The position numbers and the translations under genes are program-made. The notes under the pieces were generated by a model, which did not search any database, had not been told where the DNA came from, and saw only the letters and a list, made by a program, of their open reading frames with translations. Below are positions 6,036 through 39,567 of a DNA stretch of 64,000 bases, in pieces. How positions within the stretch are numbered: position 1 is the first letter of the stretch; every line of letters begins with the position of its first letter. This DNA comes from a virus (Duplodnaviria > Caudoviricetes). The DNA lies in IMG/VR virus record IMGVR_UViG_3300021255_001723, positions 6,576-70,575 of that record; one strand, given 5' to 3'.

Positions 6036-6695
6036 ATGGAATTTTTCAAGACGATTGCAGATTTCCTGCAGGACGGCCAGCAACTTCAGATGGCCATCAG
6101 AAAGAGCGGCGAAAGCATTGCCGTTAGTATCATGCCCGACAATCGGGGTGTCAAGGATAAGGCCGTGGAGAACATCACTCCGTTGGTCATGAGCGGCACT
6201 CCCGAAGACTTCGAGGAGGGCTTCAAAGACGCTCTGAAGCCGCTGGCACAGGCACAGGGCTTAGTGTCTAACATCAAGGAGTTCGAGGAGAGCACAGAGA
6301 AAGCCAAGCGCGAGTCCGAAATGGCAAAGAAGCTGAAGGATGAAGCAGCCAAGCAGAAGAAGGAGTTCAACGACCTCATCGCCCTTGCTCGGAAGAACAA
6401 CGATGAGCACAAGTTCAAGGATGCTCGTGCCGTACTGGCCAAGGCTTCTGCTCTCCCATCGGCTGAGAAGGCCATCATCGACAAAGTGAGCAGGGAAATC
6501 GATGCTAAGAGCGGTGTCGGTAACATGTTCGGAGGCGAGGAAGATTTGTCGGACGGCAAGAACCTCACTCCTGGAGCAAAGCCTGCTGCTCCTACACCTG
6601 CCCCCAAGAAGGAGGAAGATGCGACGGCAGCTGCTTTCAAGAAAGCTATGGAATTAGAAGACAATGATGATAACGAAAACGAAGAGGAGGAGTAG
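6036..6695 (+). CDS. PRTRC system protein E
   Basis: N-terminal ...IAVSIMP...ITPLVMSGTPEDFEEGF domain followed by a low-complexity tail; cassette context. Confidence 0.8.
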   Translation: MEFFKTIADFLQDGQQLQMAIRKSGESIAVSIMPDNRGVKDKAVENITPLVMSGTPEDFEEGFKDALKPLAQAQGLVSNIKEFEESTEKAKRESEMAKKLKDEAAKQKKEFNDLIALARKNNDEHKFKDARAVLAKASALPSAEKAIIDKVSREIDAKSGVGNMFGGEEDLSDGKNLTPGAKPAAPTPAPKKEEDATAAAFKKAMELEDNDDNENEEEE

Positions 6696-6698
6696 GAT

Positions 6699-6911
6699 AT
6701 GGCACTTAACGTAACAGGAATGAAGCGTGTGTTCAAGTTCGGAACACGAGAGTTGGAAGACCCCGACAAGAACATGTCGCCTGACGAGGTGATGCAGTTC
6801 TATTCTGCCACCTATCCAGAGTTGACTACGAGTAACGTGCATGGCCCGAAGGTCGATGACAAGCAACGAGCGGTGTACGAGTTTAAGACAACGGTAGGAA
6901 CGAAAGGATGA
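6699..6911 (+). CDS. PRTRC system protein C (ubiquitin-like)
   Basis: RVFKF...LEDPD...SPDEVMQFYSATYPELTTS...YEFKTTVGTKG with C-terminal Gly. Confidence 0.9.
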   Translation: MALNVTGMKRVFKFGTRELEDPDKNMSPDEVMQFYSATYPELTTSNVHGPKVDDKQRAVYEFKTTVGTKG

Positions 6912-6918
6912 GTAAGTC

Positions 6919-8121
6919 ATGCAAATCCAAAGAGCGACGAGAGTTCCACAAGGCTTTGTATTCCATCTTGGAAAACGACCAAAGGCAGGGATATCAGGCA
7001 AGGGACGAGGAGCGGCAACCGCTGCTCCCGCCCTCTGCGCCCCTGCTTTTCTGACAACCAAGATTGAGTCGATACGACCTTCAGACGAAGATGCAGCAAG
7101 CAGGTTTGGCATTAACATCGGCAAGAGTTATGCTAATGTCCTTGCTTGCTGCAAGCGTTTTCTGAAAATCGCAAAACAGGATTTCGATTTCAAGCCGAAC
7201 GTCGGATTGGCAAAAAGTCAGATGCTCGGAGAATTGATTGACTACTTTGAGTCGAAGATAGAGCCTCTCGGATTGGAACTTGTTGTCAGAAAGAAGAACA
7301 GCCAAGACGAAGAAACTGATGTCTTGCAATGTGTTGTATATAGGCCGGGCTTGGAGTTTGAAGGTACAATCCTTATCCTATATTGCGCCCCTGCTGTGTA
7401 TATGTCTGCAGAAGGTTGTCAGATGTATAAGCGGTTTATGAAGTTTGTCTCTGACAGCATGAACATTCCTCTCGGTGCAGCTGACCATAGTGAGAACTTT
7501 TACCTCGATTGTATCATCAACATGTATGAGTACGAGGACTTCGGCCAGTACGGAGAAGATGAAGAGTTAGTGGTGAGGAACCATATTCTTGACAAGTATA
7601 AGCAGGACGGAGAGTTTTGGAATCTCTTCGATGAAATCAACTCGCTCCCTAAAGAAAGGCCGGAGGATTTGTATGAAGCTTTGGAGGAATACCGACATCA
7701 ATGCCCGATAGACGAAACCGAAATCGTGGAAGCTATGATGGAAGGTATCGACATTGTGAAGGATGCAAACTGCTATTGGTTTGAATTCAACCCAGACGAT
7801 GATGGTATGGAAGATGAGTATGGCAACTATGGTAGTGAGGGCTACGCAAGTAGTGTATTCGCTTCGGCCATCCTCTTTTCGGAGAATGACGGTATTACCG
7901 AAGCTATGCTTGACATGATAAATAACGAAGCTGATTCAGGTATGATGATTACAGGCTGGAATATTCATCAATGGCTGTCGCCAAAGATGAAGAAGGCTGA
8001 CATTCTCGAGTTTTTAAGATGCAAGGATTTGATTGCATCACTTAGCGAGTGGACGAATACATTGTACCGAGCAGTTGAAAAATTTGACTTATATGGCAAA
8101 TCTGAGCAAGATACTGAATGA
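6919..8121 (+). CDS. PRTRC protein F-like acidic protein
   Basis: Assigned by position between C and B in the cassette; no motif recognised. Confidence 0.45.
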   Translation: MQIQRATRVPQGFVFHLGKRPKAGISGKGRGAATAAPALCAPAFLTTKIESIRPSDEDAASRFGINIGKSYANVLACCKRFLKIAKQDFDFKPNVGLAKSQMLGELIDYFESKIEPLGLELVVRKKNSQDEETDVLQCVVYRPGLEFEGTILILYCAPAVYMSAEGCQMYKRFMKFVSDSMNIPLGAADHSENFYLDCIINMYEYEDFGQYGEDEELVVRNHILDKYKQDGEFWNLFDEINSLPKERPEDLYEALEEYRHQCPIDETEIVEAMMEGIDIVKDANCYWFEFNPDDDGMEDEYGNYGSEGYASSVFASAILFSENDGITEAMLDMINNEADSGMMITGWNIHQWLSPKMKKADILEFLRCKDLIASLSEWTNTLYRAVEKFDLYGKSEQDTE

Positions 8122-8791
8122 GAAGCTGGAGGCTACTGATGCGCTGGTATTTTATAAGAGCAACCTTAATGATGGTGCGTATGTAGAACATCGGTCAATC
8201 AGGAACGGAGCCATGTGCGCTGGCAGGCCTCTTGAAATAGACGTCATAGCAAAGTTGCTGAAGACGGTTGATAAGTATGCGCACGGAACCACGTCGATGG
8301 TCTCTCTTCACGGAGAGATACCTGAGAATTTGTTGTACGCCAGTACGAGTATCGACTCCTATAAGCTGGTTTGGTACAGGAAGCCGGAGAAGAGAATGTT
8401 TTATTTCTCGGAAAATCTCGGCATTCCCAACGGAGAGGTGTTAGTTCCTGGTCTTGTCTATGTGACGGACGGTAGAACATTATCGATGTATGCCTTCAAA
8501 GGCCAGAAGCCGAAGAGGCTGTTATATCAGGCACCCTTCTTTAATACTAACACTAACGTTTGCCTTGGTAGCGGAAAGTTGCCGAAGCCAAAGGATCAGA
8601 CCTACGCAAACTGGATGGGATATTGGGAAGAGTTGTTTTGGAGAACGGAGTTTTCACACCTTATGGGCGGCAATCCTGTGAAGGGCAACCTATCCATCAT
8701 AATGAAGGAGTGCATAAGCGGTCACAAGCCGTTTCCATTGAGTTCTCTGATAGCTATAAAGACAACCCTCCAATCACTATATAAGAAGTAG
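8093..8791 (+). CDS. PRTRC system protein B (prokaryotic E2 family D)
   Basis: LVWYRKP...VPGLVY...LYQAPFFNTNTNVCLG...WEELFWRTEFSH; start moved to ATG 8093. Confidence 0.85.
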   Translation: MANLSKILNEKLEATDALVFYKSNLNDGAYVEHRSIRNGAMCAGRPLEIDVIAKLLKTVDKYAHGTTSMVSLHGEIPENLLYASTSIDSYKLVWYRKPEKRMFYFSENLGIPNGEVLVPGLVYVTDGRTLSMYAFKGQKPKRLLYQAPFFNTNTNVCLGSGKLPKPKDQTYANWMGYWEELFWRTEFSHLMGGNPVKGNLSIIMKECISGHKPFPLSSLIAIKTTLQSLYKK

Positions 8792-8798
8792 AAGAACC

Positions 8799-9080
8799 AT
8801 GAGTAAAAAAACAATAGAACATGCTGCCAGTGTTCTGAAAGAAATCAAGGCAGAAGTAAACGAAGGTGTCATCAAGGACTACGAGATGCCGACTTTGTGT
8901 AATATGGAAACGGCACGCGATACAGGCTTTGCCGTTATCCTGACACTTAGCACCAAGTATGACTACACAAGCGCAGTGATCGACGACTGGCGCAAGCGAT
9001 TGGAGGCTGACGACTACATGATTAGCGTGAAGCGAAACCAACTTAGAATAAGATTTAACGTAATGTATAGCAAGAAATGA
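8799..9080 (+). CDS. hypothetical protein inside the PRTRC cassette
   Basis: ORF coupled by ATGA overlap to the ThiF gene. Confidence 0.7.
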   Translation: MSKKTIEHAASVLKEIKAEVNEGVIKDYEMPTLCNMETARDTGFAVILTLSTKYDYTSAVIDDWRKRLEADDYMISVKRNQLRIRFNVMYSKK

Positions 9081-9853
9081 AGTACAAGCATTTTGTTCAT
9101 CCCTACATCTTAGACCCTGCGCATCCGCTGACGATAGCCTTGATAGGTGCCGGCGGTACTGGCTCGCAGGTGTTGACCTCCCTCGGTAGGATGAATTACG
9201 CATTGAGGGAGTTGGGCCACCCTGGTCTTCATGTAAAAGTGTATGATGCAGACATCGTGACACCTGCCAACTGCGGCAGGCAGTTGTTCGCTCCGCAAGA
9301 GATCGGCCGGAACAAGGCTGAGGTGCTGACGACAAAGCTGAACATGTTCTTCGGAACGTCATGGGAGAGTATTCCCGAAATGTTCAATGAGAGTTCGGAG
9401 CAAGCGAACATCGTAATTTCCTGCGTCGATACGGTGGCTTCACGGCTTGCCATCGATAAGAACCTCGAATTTCCGAATAAGAGAGGCCTGAACGGCTACG
9501 ACATACAGGTGAATTACTACTGGCTGGACTTCGGTAACACGCAATCCACAGGACAGGTAATACTCGGAACTAAGCGGGATATCAGTCAGAACAAGAAGAA
9601 GACCGATGTTGGCAAGTTGCGCTGTGTGACAGACTTCTTCGACCTTAAAAAAGTCAAGGAGAAGGATAGTGGGCCAAGTTGCTCACTTGCGGAGGCCTTG
9701 ACCAAGCAGGACTTGTTCATCAACTCGACGCTTGCTCAAATCGGCATGGCTCTCTTGTGGAAGATGTTCACGAAGGGAGTGCTCGACATACAGGGCGCAT
9801 TCTTGAATCTCGACACAATGAAGGTAAACCCGATAAAGATTGAGAAGATATGA
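9077..9853 (+). CDS. PRTRC system ThiF family protein (E1-like)
   Basis: GAGGTGS nucleotide loop, D-x-D...NCGRQ, CVD, WLDFGN, GPSCSLAEAL. Confidence 0.92.
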   Translation: MKYKHFVHPYILDPAHPLTIALIGAGGTGSQVLTSLGRMNYALRELGHPGLHVKVYDADIVTPANCGRQLFAPQEIGRNKAEVLTTKLNMFFGTSWESIPEMFNESSEQANIVISCVDTVASRLAIDKNLEFPNKRGLNGYDIQVNYYWLDFGNTQSTGQVILGTKRDISQNKKKTDVGKLRCVTDFFDLKKVKEKDSGPSCSLAEALTKQDLFINSTLAQIGMALLWKMFTKGVLDIQGAFLNLDTMKVNPIKIEKI

Positions 9854-10528: not shown

Positions 10529-10561
10529 GTGCGTTTATTTCAAGCATATTTTGTACCTTTG
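10529..10561 (+). promoter_or_regulatory. Promoter with palindromic operator-like box (late class)
   Basis: GTGCGTT-N5-CAAGCA (10529-10546), then TACCTTTG (10554-10561). Confidence 0.65.
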
Positions 10562-10584: not shown

Positions 10585-10983
10585 ATGAAGATTTATACAA
10601 GTTACTTCGCCAATTCAAGGGCTTTGAACAAGGCCGGTGTCATGCAAATCAGCATTGCACGATACTCGCCAAAGTGGTTCTACGGCCCACGATATACAGA
10701 TGTTGCACCTACTGGGTACATGCTCAGCAGCGTGTGCAGCCATGAGGAATACCTCAGAAAGTACGACGAGATTTTGAAGAAGCTCAATCCTCAATCCGTG
10801 GTTGCGGCTGTTGAGAAGATAGCCCAAGGTAAAGACGTTGCTCTTTGCTGCTACGAGAAGCCTGGCGATTTCTGCCATCGTCACCTCCTATCCGAATGGC
10901 TCAGGAAGAATGGCTACGATGTCAAGGAATGGGAGCCGGAGGAGAAGAAGAAACAGACGCAGCAGCTTTCGTTGTTTGATTAG
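10585..10983 (+). CDS. DUF488 family protein
   Basis: MKIYTSYF...ISIAR...VALCCYEKPGDFCHRHLLSEWL (LxCxE...CHR signature). Confidence 0.8.
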   Translation: MKIYTSYFANSRALNKAGVMQISIARYSPKWFYGPRYTDVAPTGYMLSSVCSHEEYLRKYDEILKKLNPQSVVAAVEKIAQGKDVALCCYEKPGDFCHRHLLSEWLRKNGYDVKEWEPEEKKKQTQQLSLFD

Positions 10984-11066: not shown

Positions 11067-11140
11067 GGATGGATAGCTCAGTTGGTCAGAGCACCTGTCT
11101 GTTAAACAGGGAGTCGGAGGTTCAAGCCCTTCTCCATCCG
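11067..11140 (+). tRNA. tRNA-Asn (GTT)
   Basis: Cloverleaf: GGATGGA/TCCATCC acceptor, CCTGT-CTGTTAA-ACAGG anticodon arm, TTCAAGC T-loop, G73. Confidence 0.85.
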
Positions 11141-11149
11141 CAGGTTGAA

Positions 11150-11241
11150 GTTCCAGTAGGGGCCTTGTGTATTCAAGGTGAGTAAAAGGAAGTTAGATGT
11201 TAATGCTAACAAGTATGCAGGTTCGAGTCCTGTCTGGAGCG
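11150..11241 (+). pseudogene. tRNA-like element with intact acceptor stem and T-arm but enlarged D region
   Basis: GTTCCAG/CTGGAGC, GCAGG-TTCGAGT-CCTGT, GTTAG/CTAAC stem with 9-nt loop. Confidence 0.5.
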
Positions 11242-11247
11242 AATACT

Positions 11248-11320
11248 TAGCAGTTAGCTCAGTTGGTAGAGCACCCGATAGATAATCGGGAGGTCATTGG
11301 TTCGAGTCCCTTACTGCGAA
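11248..11320 (+). pseudogene. Degenerate tRNA-Ile (GAT)
   Basis: Normal D-arm and CCCGA/TCGGG anticodon stem, but A33, two T-stem mismatches and one acceptor mismatch. Confidence 0.6.
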
Positions 11321-11322
11321 AC

Positions 11323-11395
11323 GCGGAAATAGCTCAGTTGGTAGAGCGTTATCTTCCCAAGATAAAGGCCGGAGGTTCGAGTCCTCCTTTCCGCT
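11323..11395 (+). tRNA. tRNA-Gly (CCC)
   Basis: GCGGAAA/TTTCCGC acceptor, U73, TTATC-TTCCCAA-GATAA, GGAGG-TTCGAGT-CCTCC. Confidence 0.88.
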
Positions 11396-11470
11396 CAGAG
11401 AGAGTATTTAGCCGTAGTGGAAACTCCCGAATAAACATGGAACGACATGAGTGTGAGAATCCCTCTTTAA

Positions 11471-11548
11471 CGCGGAGTAGAGCAGTGGTAGCTCGTCTGG
11501 CTCATAACCAGAAGGTCGTCTCAAACGGTTCGAATCCTGCCTCCGCAA
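11471..11548 (+). pseudogene. Initiator-type tRNA-Met (CAT) with disrupted, expanded T-stem
   Basis: C1:A72 mismatch, CTCATAA loop; GTCTCAAACGG replaces the 5-nt 5' T-stem strand. Confidence 0.6.
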
Positions 11549-11567
11549 CAAATCAAGATTTTTTGTA

Positions 11568-12647
11568 ATGAAAGTAGCAGTTATAGGAACGGGAAATGTA
11601 GGCATTGCCATAGCGGCAGACCTTTCCATCAGTGGTCATGAGGTGTCCTTGGTCAAAACATCCTCAGTAAAATCGAGTGCTTATGAGCGGTTGCTGGAGA
11701 ACGGCAATCGCGTTTATTTGAAAGAGGACGGTGCTTACACAGAGACCCATATCAGAGTAGTCACGAATTTGCTCAGCGAGATAGAACAGGCAGAGGTGGT
11801 GATCGTCACCATTCAGAGCATCTACCACGATGAGTTGTATAAGAACATCTGCCAGTACCTACGGGGAGAGCAGGTCGTTCTCATCATCTGCAGCTACATG
11901 TCGTCGTTCTACCTTGCCAAGTATTGCCAGGAGTTACCATCCATCGCTGAGGCCACAGGCCCATACCTTGAAGGACGTGTAGAGTTGGAGGACAAGCCGG
12001 GCCAGGTTGTGTTCCGTGTCGGTTGTAGGCTCACCAACAGCCCTCTGAGCGTGTTCCATGAGCATCGCAGGAAAGAAACCATTGAGAAGCTGAAATCCCT
12101 GTATGTGGGACTGAATGACAGCCTCTCGGTTATCGAGTCGGCTCTGCTCAACCCGAATTTGGTCATTCATACCTGCGGAGCCGTCATGAGCATCCCTCGC
12201 ATCGAATACAGCGACGGAAACTTCTGCATGTATCGTGAGGCTTATAGCCACAAGAACAAGGCCACGCTCAATGTGATGTTCAAGCTGGACGAGGAGAAGA
12301 AGAAAGTTCTGATAGCCCTCAATGCAAGAGCCATTGACATCTTGGAAGCCGGCGGTTTCCTCAAAGGTATGGAGAGCTTCTTTGAGTATTCGGAGTCGGA
12401 GGACAGGGCAATCAGTCCAACCTCCATTCATTCGAGATATATCATGGAGGACGTTTCGCAGGGATTGGTTCTGCTGGAGAGCATTGCCCATCACGTAGGT
12501 ATCGATGTGCCTGTCACCACTTCACTCATCGACCTTGCAGGAGCAGCCATAGGAGTTGATTTCAGAAAGGAGGGCAGGAGTATCTACTCGCTGGATGCCG
12601 TGAGATTTATTGACCATCTAACTGGAAGAAAGCATGGATGCCAATAG
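11568..12647 (+). CDS. NAD(P)-dependent opine (octopine/nopaline) dehydrogenase family protein
   Basis: VAVIGTGNVG Rossmann motif; LLNPNLVIH and HSRYIMEDVSQGLV motifs of the opine dehydrogenase C-domain. Confidence 0.88.
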   Translation: MKVAVIGTGNVGIAIAADLSISGHEVSLVKTSSVKSSAYERLLENGNRVYLKEDGAYTETHIRVVTNLLSEIEQAEVVIVTIQSIYHDELYKNICQYLRGEQVVLIICSYMSSFYLAKYCQELPSIAEATGPYLEGRVELEDKPGQVVFRVGCRLTNSPLSVFHEHRRKETIEKLKSLYVGLNDSLSVIESALLNPNLVIHTCGAVMSIPRIEYSDGNFCMYREAYSHKNKATLNVMFKLDEEKKKVLIALNARAIDILEAGGFLKGMESFFEYSESEDRAISPTSIHSRYIMEDVSQGLVLLESIAHHVGIDVPVTTSLIDLAGAAIGVDFRKEGRSIYSLDAVRFIDHLTGRKHGCQ

Positions 12648-14709
12648 CGACCTCAGAACAAGGACCTTCGGCATAGAGATTGAAATGTGCAATCTCGACA
12701 GACAGTTGGTGAAGCTGCCGGATGGTTACTCCTGGAGCAAGGAGGAGGAAATCGTGAATACCGACGGGTCGAGTAACAAGCGATTTGGTGGAGAGGTGAA
12801 CACCCCTCCACTCAATGTTTGTAGCCTAAAGGACTTGCATAGCCTTAAAGCCACATACGACTCGATGCGTGACGCTGGCGGTGTGATAAAATGGACCACC
12901 TATACGCACGTCCACATCTATGCAGGTGATCTGTCCGTCGAGCAGATAAAGAAAGTGTGGCTGTTCTTCTACATCTGCTATCCGTGGTGGAAGAGATACA
13001 CGAAACTCTCCGACTGGGATGAGAAAGTATTCAACTGCCAGCCTTTGCCGACGGAGAAGTACTACAATGGCCTGCTGGAGGCTCAGACATTCGAGGACAT
13101 CAATAAGCTGTTCACGAACCAGTCGAAGAAAGGCTTCATCCGACATGCCTGCAATATCTCAGCTTACTTCAAGACGAAGACGATAGAGTTTAGAACATAT
13201 CACGGAACGAGTGACTTCTATAAGGCCATGAACTGCGTCTATTCGACGTACAGAATGTTCTACTATGCCATAAATCATGAGTTGGATGATTTCTACTCCC
13301 TATCATCATACGATAAGTTCTGCAGCACCATCGGCCTCAAATGGGACACACCGCCAGAATTAGTGCCCCTCCTATACCAAGGCAACCCATACAGCGCCAT
13401 CGAGACATTTCAGACGAAATCCCTGCCGTATAACTCGAAGCAGGCATCAGCATTGTGGGAGGCCATCAAGAACCACGGCCATAAAGAACTTTGCATCGTG
13501 AATGGCTTCATGTACTACTATGAGCTGTTCTTTATGGATAAGGTGAAGGTGTCTATCTATGCGCAAGACCCGTACTGCCATCTGCTGTATATGCTTGCCA
13601 ACGGAAAGATAACCTTGAAATATAAGGAGAAGCTGTCATGGCTGGAGGATTTCAATGCTGACACCCCATCACGACAACTGGCATTGGCCCTGTATGCCGA
13701 GAAATTGCAGAAGTTCTCCATGAGTGATTCCAAGAGGAATGAAGCGGTTATTGAGTCCGTGAAGATGAGGGCCAAGGAATCAATCGAAAAGACTGAGAAG
13801 GCCTGCGAGAGGCTTCTGAAGCTACTTACCACCTGCGAATATCATATAGGCACCCTGCAGGATGCCATAGCTCAGAAGAGCGTGATATTCTTCAACTACG
13901 GCAAGGACAAGACACAGAAGCGCACGTTCAAGCTGATTGCCGAGAACTCTGATTTGGAAATGGAGTTCAATGTGAAGCGGAATGACTACTATGAGGTGAT
14001 AGAGACACTGCCGAAAGAGACATTCTTCTACTACTTCAGCAACAGCCCGTATCTGCGGAACATGCACAAGCTGGCCATGTGGAACTCGTCAAGCGGTGAG
14101 CGATGGTCAGCCGGACGTTTCCTCTACTGCAACAAGCCGAGTAGTCTGAACAAGGTAAGTACGTCGTATAAGTCGAACCATGTGGAGGTCAATGAGATCG
14201 TGCCTCCCGATGATTTGGTTATCGACAATCCCAACAGCCTAAAGATTGTTCGGGTCAGTTCCACTTGCCTGCATTGCCTGCAGAAGAAATACATCAAGAA
14301 AGTTGACCAGTGCAGCATGTGCACCTATGCCTTTGTCGTGATGTATGAGAAATATACGCTCGGTGGGTTCGGGTTCACCCTCCCACAACACAAGGGCTAC
14401 GACCTGTTCCAGCTGACGGACTTCTGTACGAACAACAATATCCCCCGTCTTGCAAAGCTGATATTGCTCTGCATTCAGACGACCGGAGTGCAGAAGGAAT
14501 TGAGCCGACGTATGCACAAGCTGTGCGAGAAGGTCATTTCCTGTGCCTACACGCACAAGCCTGTCAGTATGAAGTACAGAGGTGTCTATCAGAAGGTGAA
14601 GGAGCATTGCACCTCATCCTACCTTGCTTACGAAGGGCAGTTAGGCTTGTATGCCACCAACAAAGAAGTAATCGAGAAATATCAAAAAATGCTGAAGAAT
14701 GGTAAGTGA
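12634..14709 (+). CDS. Multidomain protein: N-terminal amidoligase (COOH-NH2 ligase), central unknown region, C-terminal probable GNAT/Mom-like domain
   Basis: RTFGIEIE, GGEVNTPP, HVHI, IEFRTYHGT for the amidoligase; C-terminal VVMYEKYTLGGFGF...CAYTHKPVSMKYRG, where the GNAT assignment is from memory and less certain. Confidence 0.7.
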   Translation: MDANSDLRTRTFGIEIEMCNLDRQLVKLPDGYSWSKEEEIVNTDGSSNKRFGGEVNTPPLNVCSLKDLHSLKATYDSMRDAGGVIKWTTYTHVHIYAGDLSVEQIKKVWLFFYICYPWWKRYTKLSDWDEKVFNCQPLPTEKYYNGLLEAQTFEDINKLFTNQSKKGFIRHACNISAYFKTKTIEFRTYHGTSDFYKAMNCVYSTYRMFYYAINHELDDFYSLSSYDKFCSTIGLKWDTPPELVPLLYQGNPYSAIETFQTKSLPYNSKQASALWEAIKNHGHKELCIVNGFMYYYELFFMDKVKVSIYAQDPYCHLLYMLANGKITLKYKEKLSWLEDFNADTPSRQLALALYAEKLQKFSMSDSKRNEAVIESVKMRAKESIEKTEKACERLLKLLTTCEYHIGTLQDAIAQKSVIFFNYGKDKTQKRTFKLIAENSDLEMEFNVKRNDYYEVIETLPKETFFYYFSNSPYLRNMHKLAMWNSSSGERWSAGRFLYCNKPSSLNKVSTSYKSNHVEVNEIVPPDDLVIDNPNSLKIVRVSSTCLHCLQKKYIKKVDQCSMCTYAFVVMYEKYTLGGFGFTLPQHKGYDLFQLTDFCTNNNIPRLAKLILLCIQTTGVQKELSRRMHKLCEKVISCAYTHKPVSMKYRGVYQKVKEHCTSSYLAYEGQLGLYATNKEVIEKYQKMLKNGK

Positions 14710-15403
14710 AGACAGATGGAAGTACGATAAGGTTGACATCAACCTCATCGACGAGGCAGAAATGAATGCCAACGAAATGACGGGTGAAGACTTCGCCACG
14801 CTGTGTGACAACATCGGCAAGTCCGGCCTAAGCAGTGTCCCATGCTGCTACAAGAAAGAGAATGGCAGGTATGTGATGATTAGCGGCCATCATCGTTTGA
14901 GGGCCTGCAAGAAGTTACACTATGCCAAGCTGGGCATCCTATGGTGTTTGGAAAGCGAACTGAGCAAGGATGAGATTATCGCCATCCAGCTCTCGCATAA
15001 CTCGCTTCACGGGCAGGATAACACGAGTATCTTGAAGAAGTTGTTTGAACAAATCCAGTCGGTTGACTTCAAGAAGTTCGCCCACATCAATATCGATGAG
15101 GTTGCTCCAGTCAGTACGGACGGCATTAGCGTGTTCGCTCTGAAGGAGAACTTCGTGTTTACGATTATCCTCTACCCAAATTCGTTCGAGAACCTGGATG
15201 AGTTGTACGGAGATATTCGTGAACAGGCTAAGAAGAGTGATACGCTCATCCTTGCGCATCAGGAGGACAATGAAATGGCTCTGCTGAAGCTGCAGCAGGA
15301 CATCGGCAACCAGTTCAATATCAAGTCGCCATCCATCACCTTTGCTAAGCTGCTGGAACTGGCTAAGGAGAGACTTGACGAAATCAAGGAGGATAAGGCA
15401 TGA
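14699..15403 (+). CDS. ParB/Srx N-terminal domain protein
   Basis: NANEM...LCDNIGKSG...YVMISGHHRLRAC. Confidence 0.85.
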   Translation: MVSEDRWKYDKVDINLIDEAEMNANEMTGEDFATLCDNIGKSGLSSVPCCYKKENGRYVMISGHHRLRACKKLHYAKLGILWCLESELSKDEIIAIQLSHNSLHGQDNTSILKKLFEQIQSVDFKKFAHINIDEVAPVSTDGISVFALKENFVFTIILYPNSFENLDELYGDIREQAKKSDTLILAHQEDNEMALLKLQQDIGNQFNIKSPSITFAKLLELAKERLDEIKEDKA

Positions 15404-16266
15404 TTTGGACGATAGTAAGTAAGGCCGAAATGGAAGGATATGCTATCCCTCCTGTCTTCCAGTACTACCGAGAGGTTGTAGGCAGGGAGAATATCAGACT
15501 GGCCGTAGTGGATGAGGACGACCCTCTCGACTTCGTTGGGGAGAAGGACATAGTTCTGCTTCGTACTGCGAGCAGGTCCCTCATTGAGACGATAGAGGCA
15601 AAGGGTGTGGCCACTACGGCAGAGCATTATTCGGTATATCAGCAGGCAAGTGATAAGGCAGAACTGGCAAGGCTCTTGTGTGAGCATGGAATCAAGGTGC
15701 CGAGGCAATATAGCATTGACCATCTTCAGCCTGGAAGCACGTATTTTGTCAAGCCACGCTTCGGCAGCGAGAGTTTTGGCATAACGGAGCACAACATCTG
15801 CCATAGCAAGGAAGATGTGAAGTTCCAGGTTATGAGATTGCAGGAGTTGGGCTACGAGAGTGTCATTGAGGACTTCATAGAAGGCAATGACGCGACTGTT
15901 GCCTGCTATTATGACCCTCAAAGCGATAGGGTATGTGCCCATGCTATTGCCGTTGACTGCGAGACGAAGGGTGCCATTCAGACGCACAAGGGCAAGTTCG
16001 ACTACAACGAATATTGCTATGCCTTGAAAGGATCGATAGGCAAGAAGGCTTGCGCCATGAGTAAGTATGTTTTCGACCTCCTTGGTATCAGACACCATGC
16101 AAGGATAGACTTCCGCTTCACGGAGAATGGTGAGGTGTATCTCATTGACGTGAACCTGCTGCCCGGCCTTGGACCATCAGCGCACTTCTCAAAGTGCCTG
16201 CTCTTGACGGAGAATATCTCCTACGTTGACACCATTATGAACATTTTGAAATCAGCAACGAAATGA
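15400..16266 (+). CDS. ATP-grasp ligase (D-Ala-D-Ala ligase-like)
   Basis: SDKAEL, FVKPRFGSESFGI, IEDFIEG, ARIDFR, LIDVNLLPG. Confidence 0.88.
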   Translation: MIWTIVSKAEMEGYAIPPVFQYYREVVGRENIRLAVVDEDDPLDFVGEKDIVLLRTASRSLIETIEAKGVATTAEHYSVYQQASDKAELARLLCEHGIKVPRQYSIDHLQPGSTYFVKPRFGSESFGITEHNICHSKEDVKFQVMRLQELGYESVIEDFIEGNDATVACYYDPQSDRVCAHAIAVDCETKGAIQTHKGKFDYNEYCYALKGSIGKKACAMSKYVFDLLGIRHHARIDFRFTENGEVYLIDVNLLPGLGPSAHFSKCLLLTENISYVDTIMNILKSATK

Positions 16267-16601
16267 AGAATATACCGATAGAGAAGATTATTCAGATTTA
16301 TGAGAAGAAGGGTTGCAATATCACGGCAACCTGTACTGCGCTCGGTATCTCCCGAAAGACCTTCTACGAATGGAAGGAGAAGAAGAAGAAACTCGCTGAA
16401 GGACTGGAGGCTGCTGAGGAGGCTATCATAGACTTCGCGGAGTCCAAGTTGGTTGAGCATATCAATAACGATGATGTGCAGGCTTTGATATTCTTCCTCC
16501 GAACCAAGGGCAAGAAGCGAGGCTATGTCGAGAAGACCGAGACCGACGTGAACATCAACCAGTTCGAGAAATTGATGCAAGATACCGAGGACGACGAGTA
16601 A
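16263..16601 (+). CDS. Terminase small subunit
   Basis: HTH NITATCTALGISRKTFYEW, then ALIFFLRTKGKKRGYVE; directly upstream of TerL. Confidence 0.8.
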   Translation: MKNIPIEKIIQIYEKKGCNITATCTALGISRKTFYEWKEKKKKLAEGLEAAEEAIIDFAESKLVEHINNDDVQALIFFLRTKGKKRGYVEKTETDVNINQFEKLMQDTEDDE

Positions 16602-18113
16602 ATGGTTCAAAACGATAAGTGGCAGAAGAAGATGAAAGCGTGGAGGAAAGACTGGTGCCTGTTCGCCAAGCAAGTTCTCCATGCTCGTCTCGATGAGGAA
16701 CAGAAGGCCATCCTGCGTGCCGTACAGAACGAGCGCATGGTGGCCGTTGCTTCGGGTACGGCCCGAGGCAAAGACTATATTGCCGCTGTCGCTTGTCTTT
16801 GTTTCATGTACCTCACTCCTCGATGGAAGGACGGGAAGCTGATTAAGAACACCAAGATTGCCATGACAGCCCCTACCGACCGACAGGTAAGGAATATCAT
16901 GGTGCCGGAGGTCAGACGTTTATACAAGGCAGCTCAGGTGCTGCCTGGCCGATTGGTGGGCTATGACATACGAACGAACTATGAGGAATGGTTCTTGACG
17001 GGCTTCAAGTCGAGTGCGGACAACACGGAGGCATGGTCGGGTTTCCATGCTGTCAATACGATGTTCGTTGTCACGGAGGCATCGGGTATCTCGGAAACCA
17101 TTTACAATGCCATCGAGGGTAACTTGCAGGGTAACTCTCGTCTGCTGATAGTGTTCAACCCCAACATCACTACTGGCTATGCAGCCAAGGCCATGAAGTC
17201 GGCACGTTTCAAGAAATTCCGTCTCAACTCCCTGCACGCTGAGAACGTGGTTCGCAAGGAGAATGTGATACCAGGCCAAGTTGACTACGAATGGGTGAAG
17301 GATAAGGTTGAGAACTGGTGCATCCGCATCCGAAAGGAAGATGTCAACGAGGGTGAGGGCGACTTCGAATGGGAAGGCCAATGGTACCGACCAAACGACC
17401 TTTTCCGTGTCAAGGTGCTCGGAATGTTCCCGAAGGTTGCAGAGGATGTCCTTATCCCATACGAATGGGTGGAACTGGCAAACAGGCGCTGGGAGGAACT
17501 GCAAGAGGAAGAATTTGAGCCGAAGAAGAAATGCCGCCTCGGTGTCGATGTTGCCGGAATGGGTCGTGATGCTTCAGTTCTTTGCCCGAGATACGGGAAC
17601 TACGTTGAAAAGTTTGAGGTGCATAACTCTGCTGGTGTGGCAGACCACATGCACGTCTGCGGAATGACAATTCCTTATCTCAAGAAGAAAGGTGCCAAGG
17701 CGTTCGTTGACACCATTGGCGAAGGTGCAGGGGTATTCTCTCGGCTTAGGGAATTGAACTACCAGAACGCTTATTCCTGTAAGTTCTCTGAGGGTACGAG
17801 AAACCTGCATGATGTCACGGAGGTTTACACCTTTTCGAATATGCGTGCTTATTTGTATTGGGCGGTTAGGGACTGGCTAAACCCGAAGAATGGCTTTCAA
17901 CCTGCATTGCCTCCTAACGATTTGCTGTTGCAGGAATGTACCGATGTGCATTGGAAGTTTCAGAGTTCAGGTGATATTCTCATTGAATCGAAAGATGAGA
18001 TAAAGAAACGCCTCGGAAGGTCGCCGGACTACCTCGATGCTCTGGCTAACACCTTCTATCCGAGAGACTACGAAGCAATCCAAGAAAGCGAACTTTTCAA
18101 AGATTTTCTTTGA
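16602..18113 (+). CDS. terL: Terminase large subunit
   Basis: VASGTARGKD Walker A-like motif, VVTEASG Walker B, nuclease motifs LGVDVAGMGRD and RSPDYLDALA. Confidence 0.92.
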   Translation: MVQNDKWQKKMKAWRKDWCLFAKQVLHARLDEEQKAILRAVQNERMVAVASGTARGKDYIAAVACLCFMYLTPRWKDGKLIKNTKIAMTAPTDRQVRNIMVPEVRRLYKAAQVLPGRLVGYDIRTNYEEWFLTGFKSSADNTEAWSGFHAVNTMFVVTEASGISETIYNAIEGNLQGNSRLLIVFNPNITTGYAAKAMKSARFKKFRLNSLHAENVVRKENVIPGQVDYEWVKDKVENWCIRIRKEDVNEGEGDFEWEGQWYRPNDLFRVKVLGMFPKVAEDVLIPYEWVELANRRWEELQEEEFEPKKKCRLGVDVAGMGRDASVLCPRYGNYVEKFEVHNSAGVADHMHVCGMTIPYLKKKGAKAFVDTIGEGAGVFSRLRELNYQNAYSCKFSEGTRNLHDVTEVYTFSNMRAYLYWAVRDWLNPKNGFQPALPPNDLLLQECTDVHWKFQSSGDILIESKDEIKKRLGRSPDYLDALANTFYPRDYEAIQESELFKDFL

Positions 18114-35400: not shown

Positions 35401-38400
35401 AAGAAATATGAAAACGACGAAGTAGGCCAGAATGGCTGGAAAGCTCTCATCTCCAATAGTGAAGAAGAAGCAAGGAAGAAGCTGAACGATGAAGAGTTCA
35501 AGCAATGGAAGCTTGTTCAGGATAAGAAGAACGCCGAACTGAAGAAAATCAACTCCCAGAGGGAAAGAACGGAACTTGACTATCAGAAGCAGCAGATTGA
35601 CTCTATGCGTGACTATCTGAAAGAGTACGGTACTTTCCAACAGCAGAAACTTGCCATTGCACAAGAGTACGCTGAAAAGATTGCAGAAGCAGAAGGTGCA
35701 GGTAATAGAGGAGAGGTGATGAGACTAAAAGCCGAACGTGACAGTCAGGTTGCAACGGCAAACGCCAAAGCGCTTGCTATGGACATCGACTGGAATCAGA
35801 CCTTCAGCGGACTCGGAAATGTTCTTGAAGAGATTGCAAAGGACACGCTCGATAAAGTCAACCAGTATATGGAAACCGCCGACTTCAAGGGGTTGGCGGC
35901 AGATGCAAAGCAGGCCTACCAAGACCTGAAGAAGCAACTCATCGATGCCGGTGGACAGAAAGCATCCAATCCTTTCTCCAAGGGAATGTGGGATGAAATC
36001 GGAAAACTCACTACCCAATATAAGACAAAGGTGAAGGCTCTCGCCGATGCCTCAGAGAAGCACGCCAAGGACACCGAGAAATACAACAAGGCTCTTGACA
36101 CGGAGGTTAAGGCGCAGGAGAAGCTTGCTAAAGCAAAAGAAGACCAGGCCAACCATGCTGGTGATGAAAAGTACGAACGTGCCGTGGAGGAAGCTAACCT
36201 CGACCTCGCTGACGCTTCTGCAAAGGCAAAGAATGCTCTTGAGGAATGGATGGATTCAGGTGAGGAGGTGAAGAACCAGCAGCAGGGTGTTTATGACACA
36301 CAGCAAAAGCTGGGTCAGGCAACCGACTCAGCAGAGCAAGGTCTTAACAACTTTAACACGGTTGTCAGTCAACTGACCAGCGGAACACTTGTAGGTTTTG
36401 CTGATGGTATTGCAAATATCATCATGGCTATCACGAAAAGTGGAGACCAAATGGAAGGTATTGGTGGACTCTTCGGTGAAGCAGGAAAGCAGATAGGCGG
36501 TATCGTTGGTGCCATCCTGTCAATCATCGATATGCTCGGCACAGACCCTGCCAAGTTCATCACCGACATTCTCGACAAGATATCGCAAGTAATCGAGGCA
36601 ATTATCTCAAACATTCCTCAGATTATCGGCGCCATCATACAGGGTATCGGCAACATCATTGCTGGCGTGTTCAAAGGTTTAGGCTCCCTATTCGGATTAG
36701 ATATAGGTGGCAAGGATAACCATGAGGAAATGCTGAAGCGTCAGAAGGAATACACCCGAAGCATTGAATCTTCATCAAGGGCTTTGGAAAAGTTCACGAC
36801 GGAACTGGAAAGAAGCTACGGTATCGTTGCAATGCAGAACGCCAAGAAGGGTGAGGAGATTATCCGTAAGAACATGGAGTCAATCGTGAATGGTATCGAC
36901 TCGGTTCTTAGCGATAACTACGGTGGCGGTCACTCCGATTACTACCACGTCAACAAACAGCAGGACGTGTTGCAAGGAATACTTCGGTATGGACAGGCGA
37001 ACGGCATCAAGGCTGGCAGCGTAGGCTCATGGCAAGACCTTCTGACCATGAATACCTCCGAGGCACTTGCCAAGACCTTCAAGGTTATCAGCGAGAGCGG
37101 TGACGACCTTTGGCGCAAGATTACCACGATGGGCTACAATGAAGGCGCTCTTGAAGAATGGATAGAGAAGCTTATCGACGCCTATGACCAGATAGACGAG
37201 AACAATAAGCAGTTGATGGAGCAGCTGACCACCACGACTGCAGACAACGTTTATGATGATTTCCTTAATTCTCTCTACGACCTTGCCGATGGTTCGGAGG
37301 ATGTTACGAAGAACATTGCCGAGGATTGGCAGAAGATGGTCAACCGCATGGTTGTCAACAACCTTATCGGCGGCAAGATGCGCGAGGAGCTGGAGGCATG
37401 GTACAAGGAACTCTATGACTTGCAGACTGCTCGCTCAGAAGGCCGTATAACTAACTACAGCTATGAGGTTTCTCTCAATGAGTTGCAAAAGAAATACAAT
37501 GAAATCATTGAGAATGGCAAGTCGCAGGTTCAGCAATTTACGGAGGACGGTATCATCAAACCCATCAGTGAAGCAACCGATGAGGTGAAGAAATACTTTG
37601 AAGACCTCCGTGACAGCTGGGCATCCACCTTGACGGACATGACCGCCACCACCGAGGACTGGAAGAACGAACTGATAGACCAGGTTCTTTCTGATTTAGT
37701 GGAGAGCACGATTCTGAACGCTCCGCTGGCCGTGATGGTTGACGGTGCAGAGAAGCAGTTCGACGACTTCAAAAAGTATCTTGAAGACTGGACTGGCCGC
37801 TATAAAGCAATCATCGAGGACCAGACGCTCACCGATGAAGAGCGGACGGCGCGGCTGAAATCCATGATCCAGGAGCAGACCGATGTGCGCGAGGTGCAGG
37901 CCGAACGCTCACGGGCACTGGCCGAAGGAATCGGCAAGGACATGAAGGAAGCCTTCAGCAACTCCCTCGACAACCTCGGCGACACGCTTCTTGACGCTCT
38001 GCTCAATACCGAGAAGGATGCGGAAAGCATGGGTAGGGAGATTGCCAGCACGCTCATCAAGGAAATGCTCCAGACGATGCTTGCCTCGGAGAAATACTCC
38101 AGCGAGATTGCCAAGATAAAGGAGAAGTGGCAGCAGGTTCTCACGGGTAAGAATACCGACGAGGAGGGTAATATCCTCTTCACGATGGACGATGTGCTGC
38201 AGCAGGTTTCCGACCTGAACGACACCATAGCCAACGACGAGGCCATCAAGTCGCTTGCCGGACAGTACCAGGAGCTGAACAAGCAGATAAAGAACACCGA
38301 CAGTCTCTTCGGCAGCATCAAGGACACCTTTGCCAGTTCCATGATGGACATGAACAAAACCGCTGACGAAATGGCCTCCGACATCGGGCAGACGATAGCC

Positions 38401-39567
38401 AAGAACATCATCGAGCAGATGGTTGTATCGTCTGCCGTGAAGCCGCTGGTTGACAACCTGCAGAAAGCCTTTGACGCGGCAAACGTGGAAGGGGCAACCT
38501 ACAGCAGTGTAATCGGTGATGAAGCAGTGCAGAACGCATTGGCGGAACTGAAGAATGCTTTCCCCGGACTGCAGGAAACAGCCAAGGGTATCATGACGGG
38601 TCTCGGCGTGAAGATGAACGAGACTGCAAAGCAAGGTTTCTCCGACCTGAAGGGAACCTTCATCAATACGCTTACCGACATGGATGCCGATGCAGAAACC
38701 CTCGGCAAGAACCTCGGCAAGTCCATGATGGAGCAGATGCTCAACGCCATGGTCGAGAAGGAATACAAGGATGACCTGAAGAAAATCAACGACGAATGGG
38801 CCGATGCCCTGGAAGCTGGTGACCCCGCAAGGCTTGAAGCCATCAAGCAGAAAGCGGAAGACCTCTTTGCCACCATCGAGAACGACCAGTCCATCAAGAA
38901 GCTGGCCGATGAGATTAAGTCTCTGACCGATAGCACTTCGGCCTCTCCCTTTGACAACCTCCGCTCCTCTTTCCTCTCTGCCCTGACGGACATGAGCAAG
39001 TCGACGGCGGACTTCACGAAGGACATCAGCACGATGATTGCGCAGTCGTTCGTGGACTCGTTCGTGATGGGCGACCTGTTCGATGAGAAGCTGGCCAAGT
39101 GGAAGAAGAAGTACAAGGAAATCACTACCGACAGCAGCCTCTCCGAGGAGCAGCGCATGAAGCAGCTGAAAGGCCTCTCGGAACTGATTGCCGGAGAGCG
39201 TGACGCCATGAAGGACGAGGTAAACGACATCTACAAGATGCTCGGAATCCGTGAAGGGCAAGACCAGAGTGCCACGATGAACATGGCCGAGGCGGCCACC
39301 TACGACCAGTTCGAGCTGTACCTTGGCATGGAGACCTCGCACCTGATGGTGGCCGAGGAGACGAAAGGCCTTGTCGCACAGGTTCTCTCCACCCTTCAGG
39401 GGATGAGCAGCCTTACCAACCCCTCTCAGAACTACGGCGAGCAGATATTCATGCGGCTGGGTACCACCAACGAGTACCTGCTGGCGGTGAAGAAAGCAGC
39501 CGAGGGAATACGTGCAGAGTTTGCGCTGAAACTCGATTTAATGAACTCACATTTAAGTAAACTTTGA
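32479..39567 (+). CDS. Tape measure protein
   Basis: 2362 aa, helical; N-terminal AAKTPFDL...AKQLLAYG...RQFMGRGIP tape-measure domain. Confidence 0.93.
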   Translation: MALKFEITGDNSNVLSSLDGVRTGVRRTAKEVEQQGMGIEDMFKRIGEAAGVAFSLDMAKRFVDTIMSVRGQFQQLEIAFSTMLQSEEKANALMKQLVDTAAKTPFDLKGVAEGAKQLLAYGTAAEDINETITRLGDIAAGLSIPLGDLVYLFGTTMTQGRMFTMDLRQFMGRGIPMAEELAKQFGVTKNEVAGLVTAGKVSAEAVKKAIWSMTEEGSKFGGLMAKQSASITGQISNIEDAIDEMFNEMGKKSEEAINAGLSGVSLLVENWETVGKAILAAAETFGIYKATLMGMTAYNSAATNIAYDAEIASLSKLLPLKEEEMNVDLRIAVAEGRLSQSKAEMIASMRAELSEQLRVLAAKEAAATANYKIALEEHLLAQRNMAVAQSQVKIALETGTAEEIAAAKRGAATAKLELQNAAIAKNTAHKELNAIATQREALANGLDAASSAGATASTGLLTQAKLALKRAVDAVNKSFLASPLFWIAATITAVTFAVYKLATAESEHERAVRKANEAIDEQDKKISERKDEIDKLVRTIQDETATEYEKVKAYNKLKNIAPQITEEYSRQELAAMKAAESQTKFNESLENMEVNDVKKHIAELQQNIGGFDQTLQKALANSGGGQGAAAISEMAYEQLRQWEEELKIYQAKLNEMELARKQAADEARPIEIRIKEAQENVDAMQSIHDFYEKAMDLAEHFQEANDEINYVTAQNNVDEFIQTSEAELADMKRQIEENPTDYKLQLEYEEKQKILNGIIDMKNQMKASGATTIPLFFKMDYQSFQNAWNAVNNQLQTLVGQTAGGGATTLLQDFTAAQKRYQAALKNLANMEANRAKYTKAQYEEAKTELKDAKKGYEDLGGDTSNRSAKKAASAAKSAKKEADRKAKEEADRQARERAEAMKHEDEMVKLGQEAERAKADARIAAIRFNSQREQAEREEQFKREEEDVKRQADEVYKNIYEQRKRAYENTNKDKKYENDEVGQNGWKALISNSEEEARKKLNDEEFKQWKLVQDKKNAELKKINSQRERTELDYQKQQIDSMRDYLKEYGTFQQQKLAIAQEYAEKIAEAEGAGNRGEVMRLKAERDSQVATANAKALAMDIDWNQTFSGLGNVLEEIAKDTLDKVNQYMETADFKGLAADAKQAYQDLKKQLIDAGGQKASNPFSKGMWDEIGKLTTQYKTKVKALADASEKHAKDTEKYNKALDTEVKAQEKLAKAKEDQANHAGDEKYERAVEEANLDLADASAKAKNALEEWMDSGEEVKNQQQGVYDTQQKLGQATDSAEQGLNNFNTVVSQLTSGTLVGFADGIANIIMAITKSGDQMEGIGGLFGEAGKQIGGIVGAILSIIDMLGTDPAKFITDILDKISQVIEAIISNIPQIIGAIIQGIGNIIAGVFKGLGSLFGLDIGGKDNHEEMLKRQKEYTRSIESSSRALEKFTTELERSYGIVAMQNAKKGEEIIRKNMESIVNGIDSVLSDNYGGGHSDYYHVNKQQDVLQGILRYGQANGIKAGSVGSWQDLLTMNTSEALAKTFKVISESGDDLWRKITTMGYNEGALEEWIEKLIDAYDQIDENNKQLMEQLTTTTADNVYDDFLNSLYDLADGSEDVTKNIAEDWQKMVNRMVVNNLIGGKMREELEAWYKELYDLQTARSEGRITNYSYEVSLNELQKKYNEIIENGKSQVQQFTEDGIIKPISEATDEVKKYFEDLRDSWASTLTDMTATTEDWKNELIDQVLSDLVESTILNAPLAVMVDGAEKQFDDFKKYLEDWTGRYKAIIEDQTLTDEERTARLKSMIQEQTDVREVQAERSRALAEGIGKDMKEAFSNSLDNLGDTLLDALLNTEKDAESMGREIASTLIKEMLQTMLASEKYSSEIAKIKEKWQQVLTGKNTDEEGNILFTMDDVLQQVSDLNDTIANDEAIKSLAGQYQELNKQIKNTDSLFGSIKDTFASSMMDMNKTADEMASDIGQTIAKNIIEQMVVSSAVKPLVDNLQKAFDAANVEGATYSSVIGDEAVQNALAELKNAFPGLQETAKGIMTGLGVKMNETAKQGFSDLKGTFINTLTDMDADAETLGKNLGKSMMEQMLNAMVEKEYKDDLKKINDEWADALEAGDPARLEAIKQKAEDLFATIENDQSIKKLADEIKSLTDSTSASPFDNLRSSFLSALTDMSKSTADFTKDISTMIAQSFVDSFVMGDLFDEKLAKWKKKYKEITTDSSLSEEQRMKQLKGLSELIAGERDAMKDEVNDIYKMLGIREGQDQSATMNMAEAATYDQFELYLGMETSHLMVAEETKGLVAQVLSTLQGMSSLTNPSQNYGEQIFMRLGTTNEYLLAVKKAAEGIRAEFALKLDLMNSHLSKL

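Follow-up and report, generated by a model that had tools for sequence, protein, structure and literature searches.

What a phage might gain by joining an amidoligase to the fold of a DNA adenine methyltransferase and to a GNAT-like domain, and what such a protein acts on, are the questions raised by a gene at positions 12634-14709 of the stretch analyzed here (the window), a 64-kb segment comprising bases 6576-70575 of the 70.6-kb IMG/VR virus record IMGVR_UViG_3300021255_001723 (completeness estimate 94%). Judged by its closest relatives, which are found in Prevotella metagenome-assembled genomes (MAGs) and isolates, the phage is a Prevotella-type gut phage. The gene belongs to a core conserved across phyla and described here for the first time, consisting of DUF488, a Dam-like/GNAT protein and a ParB-like protein whose gene overlaps that of the enzyme; as a rule the terminase genes lie downstream of this core. 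From the company it keeps we infer its substrate and chemistry: a ParB-assisted, late-expressed, post-replicative module for phage DNA-base hypermodification that would make an amide-linked adduct, a reading that we hold to be about evenly poised between right and wrong.

The open reading frame (ORF; + strand, ATG start, 691 aa) has exactly the coordinates and length given in an earlier reading of the letters (the original prediction). It is a real gene, far beyond chance, because its Pfam matches exceed their thresholds, it matches phrog_2443 and it has 761 homologs in a set of 5.8 billion proteins. In Pfam, Amidoligase_2 (PF12224) was matched at residues 48-200 (55.3 bits, gathering cut-off 22), DAM-like-phage2 (PF22556) at residues 240-419 (314.6 bits, E = 2.4e-94, above the gathering threshold) and GNAT-phage-like (PF22559) at residues 535-685 (138.3 bits, E = 2.6e-40, cut-off 27). 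In PHROGs, phrog_2443 ('amidoligase enzyme') covered residues 5-691 (E = 9.2e-194). The strings on which the original prediction had relied were all found in the translation, namely TFGIEIE (residues 11-17), GEVNTPP (53-59), HVH (92-94) and IEFR (184-187) for the amidoligase, and VVMYEKYTLGGFGF (569-582), LAKLILL (606-612) and CAYTHKPVSMKYRG (637-650) for the C-terminus. Sequence searches of the PDB with the protein and with its profile returned nothing informative. Three regions were delimited.

12634-13338, + strand: fusion residues 1-235, Amidoligase_2/YbdK-like domain (PF12224, invariant residues, Foldseek)
13420-14139, + strand: fusion residues 263-502, degenerate Dam-like fold (PF22556, structural match to E. 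coli Dam)
14221-14709, + strand: fusion residues 530-691, GNAT-phage-like domain (PF22559, structural match to Mu Mom)

AlphaFold2 models were built for residues 230-691 (predicted local distance difference test, pLDDT, 87.5) and for the full length (pLDDT 87.9, predicted template modeling score 0.70). A structure comparison had been proposed with the original prediction; carried out on these two models, it matched the amidoligase, Dam N6-methyltransferase and GNAT/Mom folds. Conservation was read from an alignment of 25 full-length homologs (lowest identity 22%), in which columns conserved at 90% or more made up 9.4% of the amidoligase domain, 1.2% of the Dam-like domain and 9.3% of the GNAT-like domain. 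The protein thus aligned reads as two active-looking enzymes on either side of a scaffold that resembles a DNA adenine methyltransferase in shape alone. A ubiquitin-like element in the linker (13297-13449, residues 222-272), resembling ubiquitin residues 21-71 (PLIFAGxQ-like), was put down to chance, because polyubiquitin E-values sum over repeats; single stretches gave 2-3 bits and single ubiquitin E > 1.

The N-terminal domain is apparently an active YbdK-like ATP-dependent carboxylate-amine ligase, and the guess of an amidoligase was borne out by Pfam, by conservation and by fold. Residues E15, E17, G52, T57, P59, H94, R170, T183, E185 and R187 were invariant and E54 nearly so; the conserved ExE, GE.NTPP, H, R and ExR we take, from knowledge of the family, to be the catalytic residues of the ligase. 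Foldseek on the full-length model retrieved YbdK 1r8g (E = 1.3e-3, probability 1.0) and 1tt4, with TM-scores that are modest for a multi-domain query. Fold and conserved residues are thus shared with the YbdK/Amidoligase_2 ligases, and the partners differ: a glutamine amidotransferase or a gamma-glutamyl cyclotransferase in the phiEco32-type systems, as those of Iyer et al. (2009) are summarized in later work (and, for example, in relative P0195), whereas here they are Dam-like, GNAT and ParB. Amidoligases are also listed as uncharacterised associates of thymidine hypermodification clusters (PMC8989533).

The middle domain, on the evidence of its model, is a degenerate alpha-class N6-adenine methyltransferase fold and not a methyltransferase; the earlier suspicion of a degenerate methyltransferase agrees with the PF22556 match, the structural match and the missing motifs I and IV. 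When the model of residues 230-691 was compared by VIA-align, E. coli Dam (4rtk_A) was matched with Z 10.6 and a root-mean-square deviation (rmsd) of 4.5 over 184 aligned residues (model residues 34-273), and DpnM (2dpm) with Z 9.1. The fold shared with E. coli/T4 Dam and DpnM (Z 9.1-10.6, ~184 residues) includes the helical target-recognition region. Ribosomal RNA methyltransferases (AviRa, 1o9g/1o9h) and a dimethyladenosine transferase were also matched, over shorter lengths and with lower scores than Dam. Unlike Dam and DpnM, the domain has neither FxGxG nor DPPY and almost no conserved residues. The S-adenosylmethionine (SAM) motif I (FxGxG) was absent from residues 263-502, the sole [FVIL]xGxG of the protein lying at residue 576 in the GNAT domain, and the stretch that corresponds to motif I reads CIVNGFMYY and is not conserved. 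A regular-expression search of the whole protein found no motif IV ([DNS]PP[YFWH]) and no GxGxG; at the place expected for motif IV by analogy, the end of a predicted strand at residues 464-469, the protein reads FSNSPYL, of which only S469 is invariant. Membership of the Pfam D12 methyltransferases was rejected, with no match even at E <= 10, and none for the better-preserved 430-aa relatives described below. Modeled in this way, the domain is probably a non-catalytic scaffold that binds DNA and presents a base.

The C-terminus has a GNAT fold, as had been proposed, and falls in a ParB-associated phage family that databases name 'GNAT-like putative antirestriction protein'. Its best structural match (residues 530-672) was phage Mu Mom (8bv8_A; Z 11.1, rmsd 3.0, 134 aligned). 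Invariant in the alignment were G577, D596, S645, K647, Y648, R649, G650 and Y666, giving the signature D596 ... K608 ... P-V-S645-M-K-Y-R-G650 ... Y666, of which PVSMKYRG and the Asp of the preceding strand are also invariant in stand-alone and 430-aa relatives from other phyla. The domain is strongly basic in every member of the family (net charge +14 here; median +13, range +6 to +19). A regular-expression search of the whole protein did not find the acetyl-CoA motif A loop (Q/RxxGxG/A), the position of which reads TNNNIPRLAK (family consensus RLSKL). Mu Mom is the only GNAT known to acylate DNA, by tRNA-dependent adenine acylation using Gly-tRNA, and depends on R111, S124, D149, R151 and a helix-turn-helix (HTH)-like insertion at 175-209 (PMC13219725). 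The GNAT fold, the missing canonical acetyl-CoA loop and a basic surface are common to Mom and the domain, and Mom, too, is expressed late by its phage and has a connection with anti-restriction (PMC13219725). Mom works unaided, as a dimer; the GNAT domain here shares its polypeptide with the Dam-like and amidoligase domains, and ParB and DUF488 accompany it.

These partners are encoded around the fusion gene as follows.

10554-10561, + strand: TACCTTTG, candidate -7 promoter element of Bacteroidota type, 24 nt upstream of the DUF488 start
10585-10983, + strand: DUF488-N3a protein, 132 aa (Pfam PF22751, E = 1.7e-11)
11067-11549, + strand: tRNA cluster Asn-GTT, Ile-GAT, Gly-CCC, Met-CAT (ARAGORN), within the DUF488-to-terL operon
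11568-12647, + strand: opine/octopine-dehydrogenase-family NAD(P) oxidoreductase, 359 aa (Octopine_DH, E = 2.6e-26, and an N-terminal Rossmann domain)
14699-15403, + strand: ParB/Srx-fold protein, 234 aa (phrog_7405, E = 2.5e-75; several ParB PHROGs down to 2e-11; TIGR00180, 1.3e-6)
15400-16266, + strand: ATP-grasp ligase, D-Ala-D-Ala-ligase-like, 288 aa (Dala_Dala_lig_C, E = 5.8e-13, and ATP-grasp_3)
16263-16601, + strand: terminase small subunit, terS (PHROG, E = 2e-11)
16602-18113, + strand: terminase large subunit, terL (PHROG, E = 8.6e-32), directly after terS

From the opine dehydrogenase gene through terL the genes overlap or abut, behind the candidate promoter element. The 3' end of the opine dehydrogenase gene overlaps the fusion gene by 14 nt, the ParB-like gene overlaps it by 11 nt, and the ATP-grasp gene has a 4-nt overlap at each side, with the ParB-like gene and with terS, an arrangement by which the terminase genes would be translationally coupled to the module. 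The element TACCTTTG matches TAnnTTTG, which we take to be the Bacteroidota -7 consensus; it is a candidate promoter element at the probable start of the operon, and its letters fit a Bacteroidota host and a transcript starting there. The ParB-like protein is short, retains the whole P-motif GxxRxxA (as SGHHRLRA) and lacks a recognisable HTH; in its alignment GxxRxxA and I61-S-G-x-H-R66 were invariant and a QLSHNS block was conserved. By analogy, it is a probable loader or activator of the enzyme. Against the PADLOC defense models the fusion, ParB-like, ATP-grasp and opine dehydrogenase proteins had no match and DUF488 had weak matches to candidate families only; DUF488 had no match in the PDB.

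Conservation of the neighborhood was counted in 80 close relatives, 21 diverse loci of the full-length type and 59 diverse loci of a short type that has the Dam-like and GNAT domains; the diverse loci were counted with hidden Markov models iterated on the partners, so that some profile drift is possible.

ParB-like gene: directly downstream in 80/80 close relatives; in diverse full-length loci directly downstream on the same strand in 18/21 and somewhere in the locus in 21/21; in diverse short loci directly downstream on the same strand in 39/54 with enough downstream sequence and in the locus in 55/59
DUF488: 78/80 close relatives; 21/21 diverse full-length loci; 41/59 diverse short loci
ATP-grasp ligase: 80/80 close relatives; 10/21 diverse full-length loci; 3/59 diverse short loci
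Opine dehydrogenase: 60/80 close relatives; 8/21 diverse full-length loci; 0/59 diverse short loci

The conserved core is thus DUF488, the Dam-like/GNAT protein and the overlapping ParB-like gene, and the amidoligase fusion, the ATP-grasp ligase and the opine dehydrogenase are lineage-specific additions in Bacteroidota phages. The gene order recurs at homologs of 83, 45, 37, 29 and 23% identity (loci L001 and L006-L009), with DUF488 seen at L001, L006, L008 and L009, the opine dehydrogenase at L006 and the ATP-grasp ligase at L006-L008. The terminase adjoins the module at all five of these loci and in Faecalibacterium phage FP_Brigit, where terS and terL come after the ParB-like gene. Gordonia phage Clawz, FP_Brigit and Mycobacterium phage Jeon each carry a 430-aa gene followed by an overlapping ParB-like gene. 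The repeated overlaps (-3 to -27 nt) are unlikely to have arisen by chance.

If the module acts on DNA, the 691-aa protein would be its central enzyme and would modify the replicated DNA of the phage itself, either ahead of packaging or in the course of it, most likely at an exocyclic amine such as adenine N6. The degenerate Dam-like domain, its SAM binding lost and its base-flipping fold kept, would present the target base, and the basic GNAT-like domain (D596, K608, S645, K647, Y648, R649, Y666; no acetyl-CoA loop) would transfer an acyl or aminoacyl group to it, as Mom does with Gly-tRNA. The amidoligase may activate a carboxylate donor or extend the adduct by an ATP-dependent amide bond, and the adduct may be tailored further by the ATP-grasp ligase (a second amide bond) and by the opine dehydrogenase (reductive N-carboxyalkylation of a free amine). 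The ParB-like protein, binding a nucleoside triphosphate (NTP), would load or activate the enzyme on DNA, as in the ParB-dependent phage thymine dioxygenases, with DUF488 acting in some further step; the benefit would be virion DNA protected from host restriction. Observed were the identity and fold of each domain, the missing methyltransferase motifs, the pattern of conserved residues, the net charge and the conserved neighborhood of genes; from these we infer by analogy that the substrate is DNA, and also which atom is modified, what the donor is and in which order the steps run. Any modification must be post-replicative, because no polymerase or nucleotide-synthesis genes were found among the window ORFs scanned and the phage is temperate, as judged by a tyrosine integrase (58907-60121, - strand) of Bacteroidota type with Arm-DNA-bind_5 and Phage_int_SAM_5 domains.

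DNA was preferred as the substrate because a ParB-fold neighbor and co-expression with the terminase are found together with a Dam fold and with a Mom-like GNAT domain that is basic and has no CoA loop, because a constant core with variable ligases and dehydrogenase resembles known hypermodification clusters (PMC8989533), and because the middle domain matches DNA adenine methyltransferases that were solved with DNA. The closest precedent for the ParB coupling is given by the ParB-dependent thymine dioxygenases (5mYOX with a ParB-like protein; PNAS 2026, PMC13229309), in which the gene for the enzyme is paired with one for a small ParB-fold protein that retains the NTP motif and has no obvious DNA-binding domain; such HTH-less ParB-like proteins are, by experiment, required activators of these enzymes. 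The partner there is an iron/2-oxoglutarate dioxygenase rather than a ligase/GNAT protein, and the dependence on ParB is here a prediction. The ParB fold of phages is also frequently fused to DNA methyltransferases (PMC12704722). A more specific form of the proposal, possible rather than probable in our estimation, is that Prevotella/Bacteroidota gut phages add a novel amino-acid, peptide or opine-type adduct to a base amine just before packaging, the GNAT domain (with the dead Dam domain and the ParB loader) installing the acyl or aminoacyl group and the amidoligase, ATP-grasp ligase and opine dehydrogenase then extending it, so that a new, widespread class of hypermodification systems would have the triad at its core. 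The function is probably novel in its chemistry.

Several results weigh against DNA modification. Both the binding of DNA and the modified base are themselves predictions; the Dam-like domain is charge-neutral across the family and is without any catalytic methyltransferase motif; and no fusion of ParB to the enzyme was found among the relatives, the 636-aa relatives that were considered as a Rosetta-stone ParB fusion being divergent amidoligase...GNAT proteins. The description of the C-terminal domain as 'Mom-like' stood for structure and failed for sequence: hhalign gave the domain profile a probability of 0.3% against Mu Mom and 1.2% against a 23-member Mom alignment, and the fusion had no match to the Mom family PF25680 at E <= 0.01 (Mu Mom itself scores 253 bits), by which sequence homology to Mom was ruled out. 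Even in structure, other GNATs (N-acetyltransferases of proteins and small molecules) reached Z 8.5-10.1, leaving Mom ahead by only ~1. The essential HTH-like insertion of Mom has no evident counterpart, as a domain of ~160 aa has no room for its 35 residues, and no residue-level alignment onto R111, S124, D149 and R151 was obtained, the domain having an invariant set of its own. On the models, the link to Mom is at the level of the fold only; the domain may work like Mom and is not a member of its family. An aminoacyl-tRNA donor is without support, since the tRNA genes beside the module are inconsistent: from nearby tRNAs it was rejected on finding Asn/Ile/Gly/Met in the window, Asn/Asn/Met at L001, Lys in FP_Brigit, Gly in Jeon and none at L006-L009. 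The cluster in the operon is probably incidental to the module. As a single case, a tRNA-Gly(TCC) in Jeon (locus L004, 3893-3964) overlaps the annotated start of gp68, the 430-aa protein, and Mom uses Gly-tRNA; a second tRNA-Gly (TCC) of the window lies at 31603-31675, in the tail region.

The same enzymes might work on protein instead, an unlikely alternative in which a packaging, virion or host-defense protein would be modified, the GNAT domain serving as an N-acyl or peptidyl transferase, the amidoligase and ATP-grasp ligase adding amino acids and the Dam-like domain acting as a structural adaptor. Many of the top GNAT matches are protein N-terminal acetyltransferases (Naa50, Naa60, NatD), the two ligase types are classically peptide-bond formers, and peptides or the cell wall were the substrates first predicted for phage Amidoligase_2 systems, in the work of Iyer et al. 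(2009) as relayed by PMC11318856, a point that also counts against DNA. The module lies among morphogenesis genes, and the database name 'putative antirestriction protein' could equally mean that a host protein is inactivated. A protein substrate leaves the retained Dam fold, the strictly linked ParB-fold partner and the strongly basic GNAT domain hard to explain, however, and in many prophages the core triad is also found far from structural genes. The ParB link, together with the position beside the terminase, likewise points to DNA rather than to RNA, on which the module might act by modifying or repairing tRNA or rRNA so as to tune translation or evade RNA-targeting defenses. This we consider quite unlikely: the basic GNATs TacT and FemX bind tRNA (PMC13219725), the middle domain also matches rRNA methyltransferases, and tRNA genes lie inside the operon and flank the module in Jeon and FP_Brigit, but those tRNA neighbors vary in identity and are absent from most related loci, and the matches to Dam are longer and higher-scoring than those to RNA methyltransferases.

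Taken by themselves, the amidoligase, the ATP-grasp ligase and the opine dehydrogenase suggest the synthesis of a small molecule. Opine dehydrogenases take part in the making of metabolites and metallophores, and YbdK-type ligases use free amino acids, so the product might be a modified nucleotide or a metabolite resembling a peptide or an opine, to be bound or acylated by the Dam-like/GNAT part. With the ATP-grasp ligase and the opine dehydrogenase dispensable (present in 10 and 8, respectively, of the 21 diverse full-length loci), a core triad that is not a recognisable metabolite pathway and the ParB link left unexplained, this is very unlikely. The least probable account dispenses with catalysis, making the protein an anti-restriction or packaging accessory factor that binds DNA or a host nuclease, with its enzyme folds as relics; the clearly degenerate Dam-like domain and the 'antirestriction' name would suit it, and the full invariant acidic/His/Arg set of the amidoligase and the strict, active-site-like conservation of PVSMKYRG across phyla down to ~20% identity speak against it.

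The architecture had been thought new. It is already recorded as phrog_2443 and in three Pfam families, and both gut viromes and the prophages of Bacteroidota are rich in it; the window protein belongs to a group with the same domains and length (PF12224, PF22556 and PF22559; for example, UniProt A0A8S5SJK3, an 'amidoligase family protein' of Bacteroidales MAGs). The automatic name of phrog_2443 derives from the N-terminal domain only, and papers mention the family only in lists of prophage genes, under the name 'amidoligase enzyme' (PMC11318856). A search of the full-text literature found no paper on the architecture or on PF22555, PF22556 or PF22559, although an earlier in-silico prediction in papers on DUF488-N3a or amidoligase systems is possible. 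The top 120 homologs are equal in length to the fusion, and nearly all of them carry its three Pfam domains; the full architecture forms ~30 clusters at 50% identity, and 537 IMG/VR stretches carry the exact signature and encode relatives. In species-representative genomes, 175 stretches were found.

The full-length form was found only in Bacteroidota (Prevotella, Bacteroidaceae, Alistipes, Muribaculaceae, Paludibacteraceae, Dysgonomonas and Capnocytophaga), including the cultured strains Prevotella vespertina A2879, Prevotella sp. KH2C16, Muribaculaceae MF13079 and Capnocytophaga catalasegens KC07084. Muribaculaceae bacterium MF13079 (CP061009.1) has two copies of the fusion (L102 and L103), 34% identical to the window protein and ~1.2 Mb apart, presumably two prophages. 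The short Dam-like/GNAT form was found in Planctomycetota, Desulfobacterota, Proteobacteria, Firmicutes, Chloroflexota and one Methanobacterium MAG, and, with the C-terminal domain or the 430-aa form as query, in cultured Mycobacterium, Gordonia and Faecalibacterium phages. When the whole fusion was searched by tblastn against 50,697 phage records there was no match, probably in part because cultured phages have only the 430-aa form.

The 430-aa proteins (PF22555, DAM-like-phage1, with PF22559; phrog_7858), represented by Clawz gp29, FP_Brigit gp21 and Jeon gp68, have in common with the fusion the homologous Dam-like and GNAT-like domains, PVSMKYRG, the overlapping ParB-like gene and, often, DUF488 upstream. 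Unlike the fusion, they are without the amidoligase, never accompanied by the opine dehydrogenase and rarely by the ATP-grasp ligase, and they keep the Dam-type remnants GCSGNF, SNDVSLY and PPTYxGGYE, all three of which are eroded in the window protein. The idea that methylation had been replaced by amide ligation is imprecise, because the 430-aa form, with its PPTYxGGYE, is already without the catalytic D/N of motif IV; what happened is that an older Dam-like/GNAT module gained an amidoligase at its N-terminus. Two metagenomic relatives carry further domains. One (P0226, 770 aa) has an HNH endonuclease domain, possibly a homing-endonuclease insertion, inside the Dam-like domain of a PF22555 and PF22559 protein; the other (P0146, 873 aa) is a full fusion with an extra N-terminal canonical acetyltransferase (Acetyltransf_3), a fourth acyl-handling domain.

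To our knowledge, few chemistries of phage DNA hypermodification have been described, and all of them have given new enzymology and tools. Three amide- or amine-forming enzymes and a ParB-fold partner come together in the module, which, with 761 homologs and 537 IMG/VR stretches, is far more widespread in gut Bacteroidota phages than Mom-type systems. Were DNA modified by it, the adduct would belong to a new class, the newly recognised role of the ParB fold as a partner of DNA-modifying enzymes would be extended, and restriction evasion by temperate Prevotella phages would be explained, with a bearing on microbiome phage biology and on the sequencing and cloning of such DNA. The most useful results are the conserved DUF488 / Dam-like-GNAT / ParB-like triad and the cultured lysogens, which make a DNA adduct directly testable.

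Elsewhere in the window, a PRTRC-type ubiquitin-like cassette lies upstream of the module at 6036-9853 (PRTRC_E, Prok_Ub, a 400-aa ORF, a Prok-E2_D/PRTRC_B-like protein and a PRTRC ThiF at 265.6 bits, above the cut-off). It was rejected as part of the module, the ThiF gene being <=6 kb away in only 6/80 close relatives. An endolysin (Amidase_2 and PG_binding_1) is encoded at 52075-52722, and the tail region holds two very long ORFs, at 32479-39567 (2362 aa) and 40117-45198 (1693 aa).

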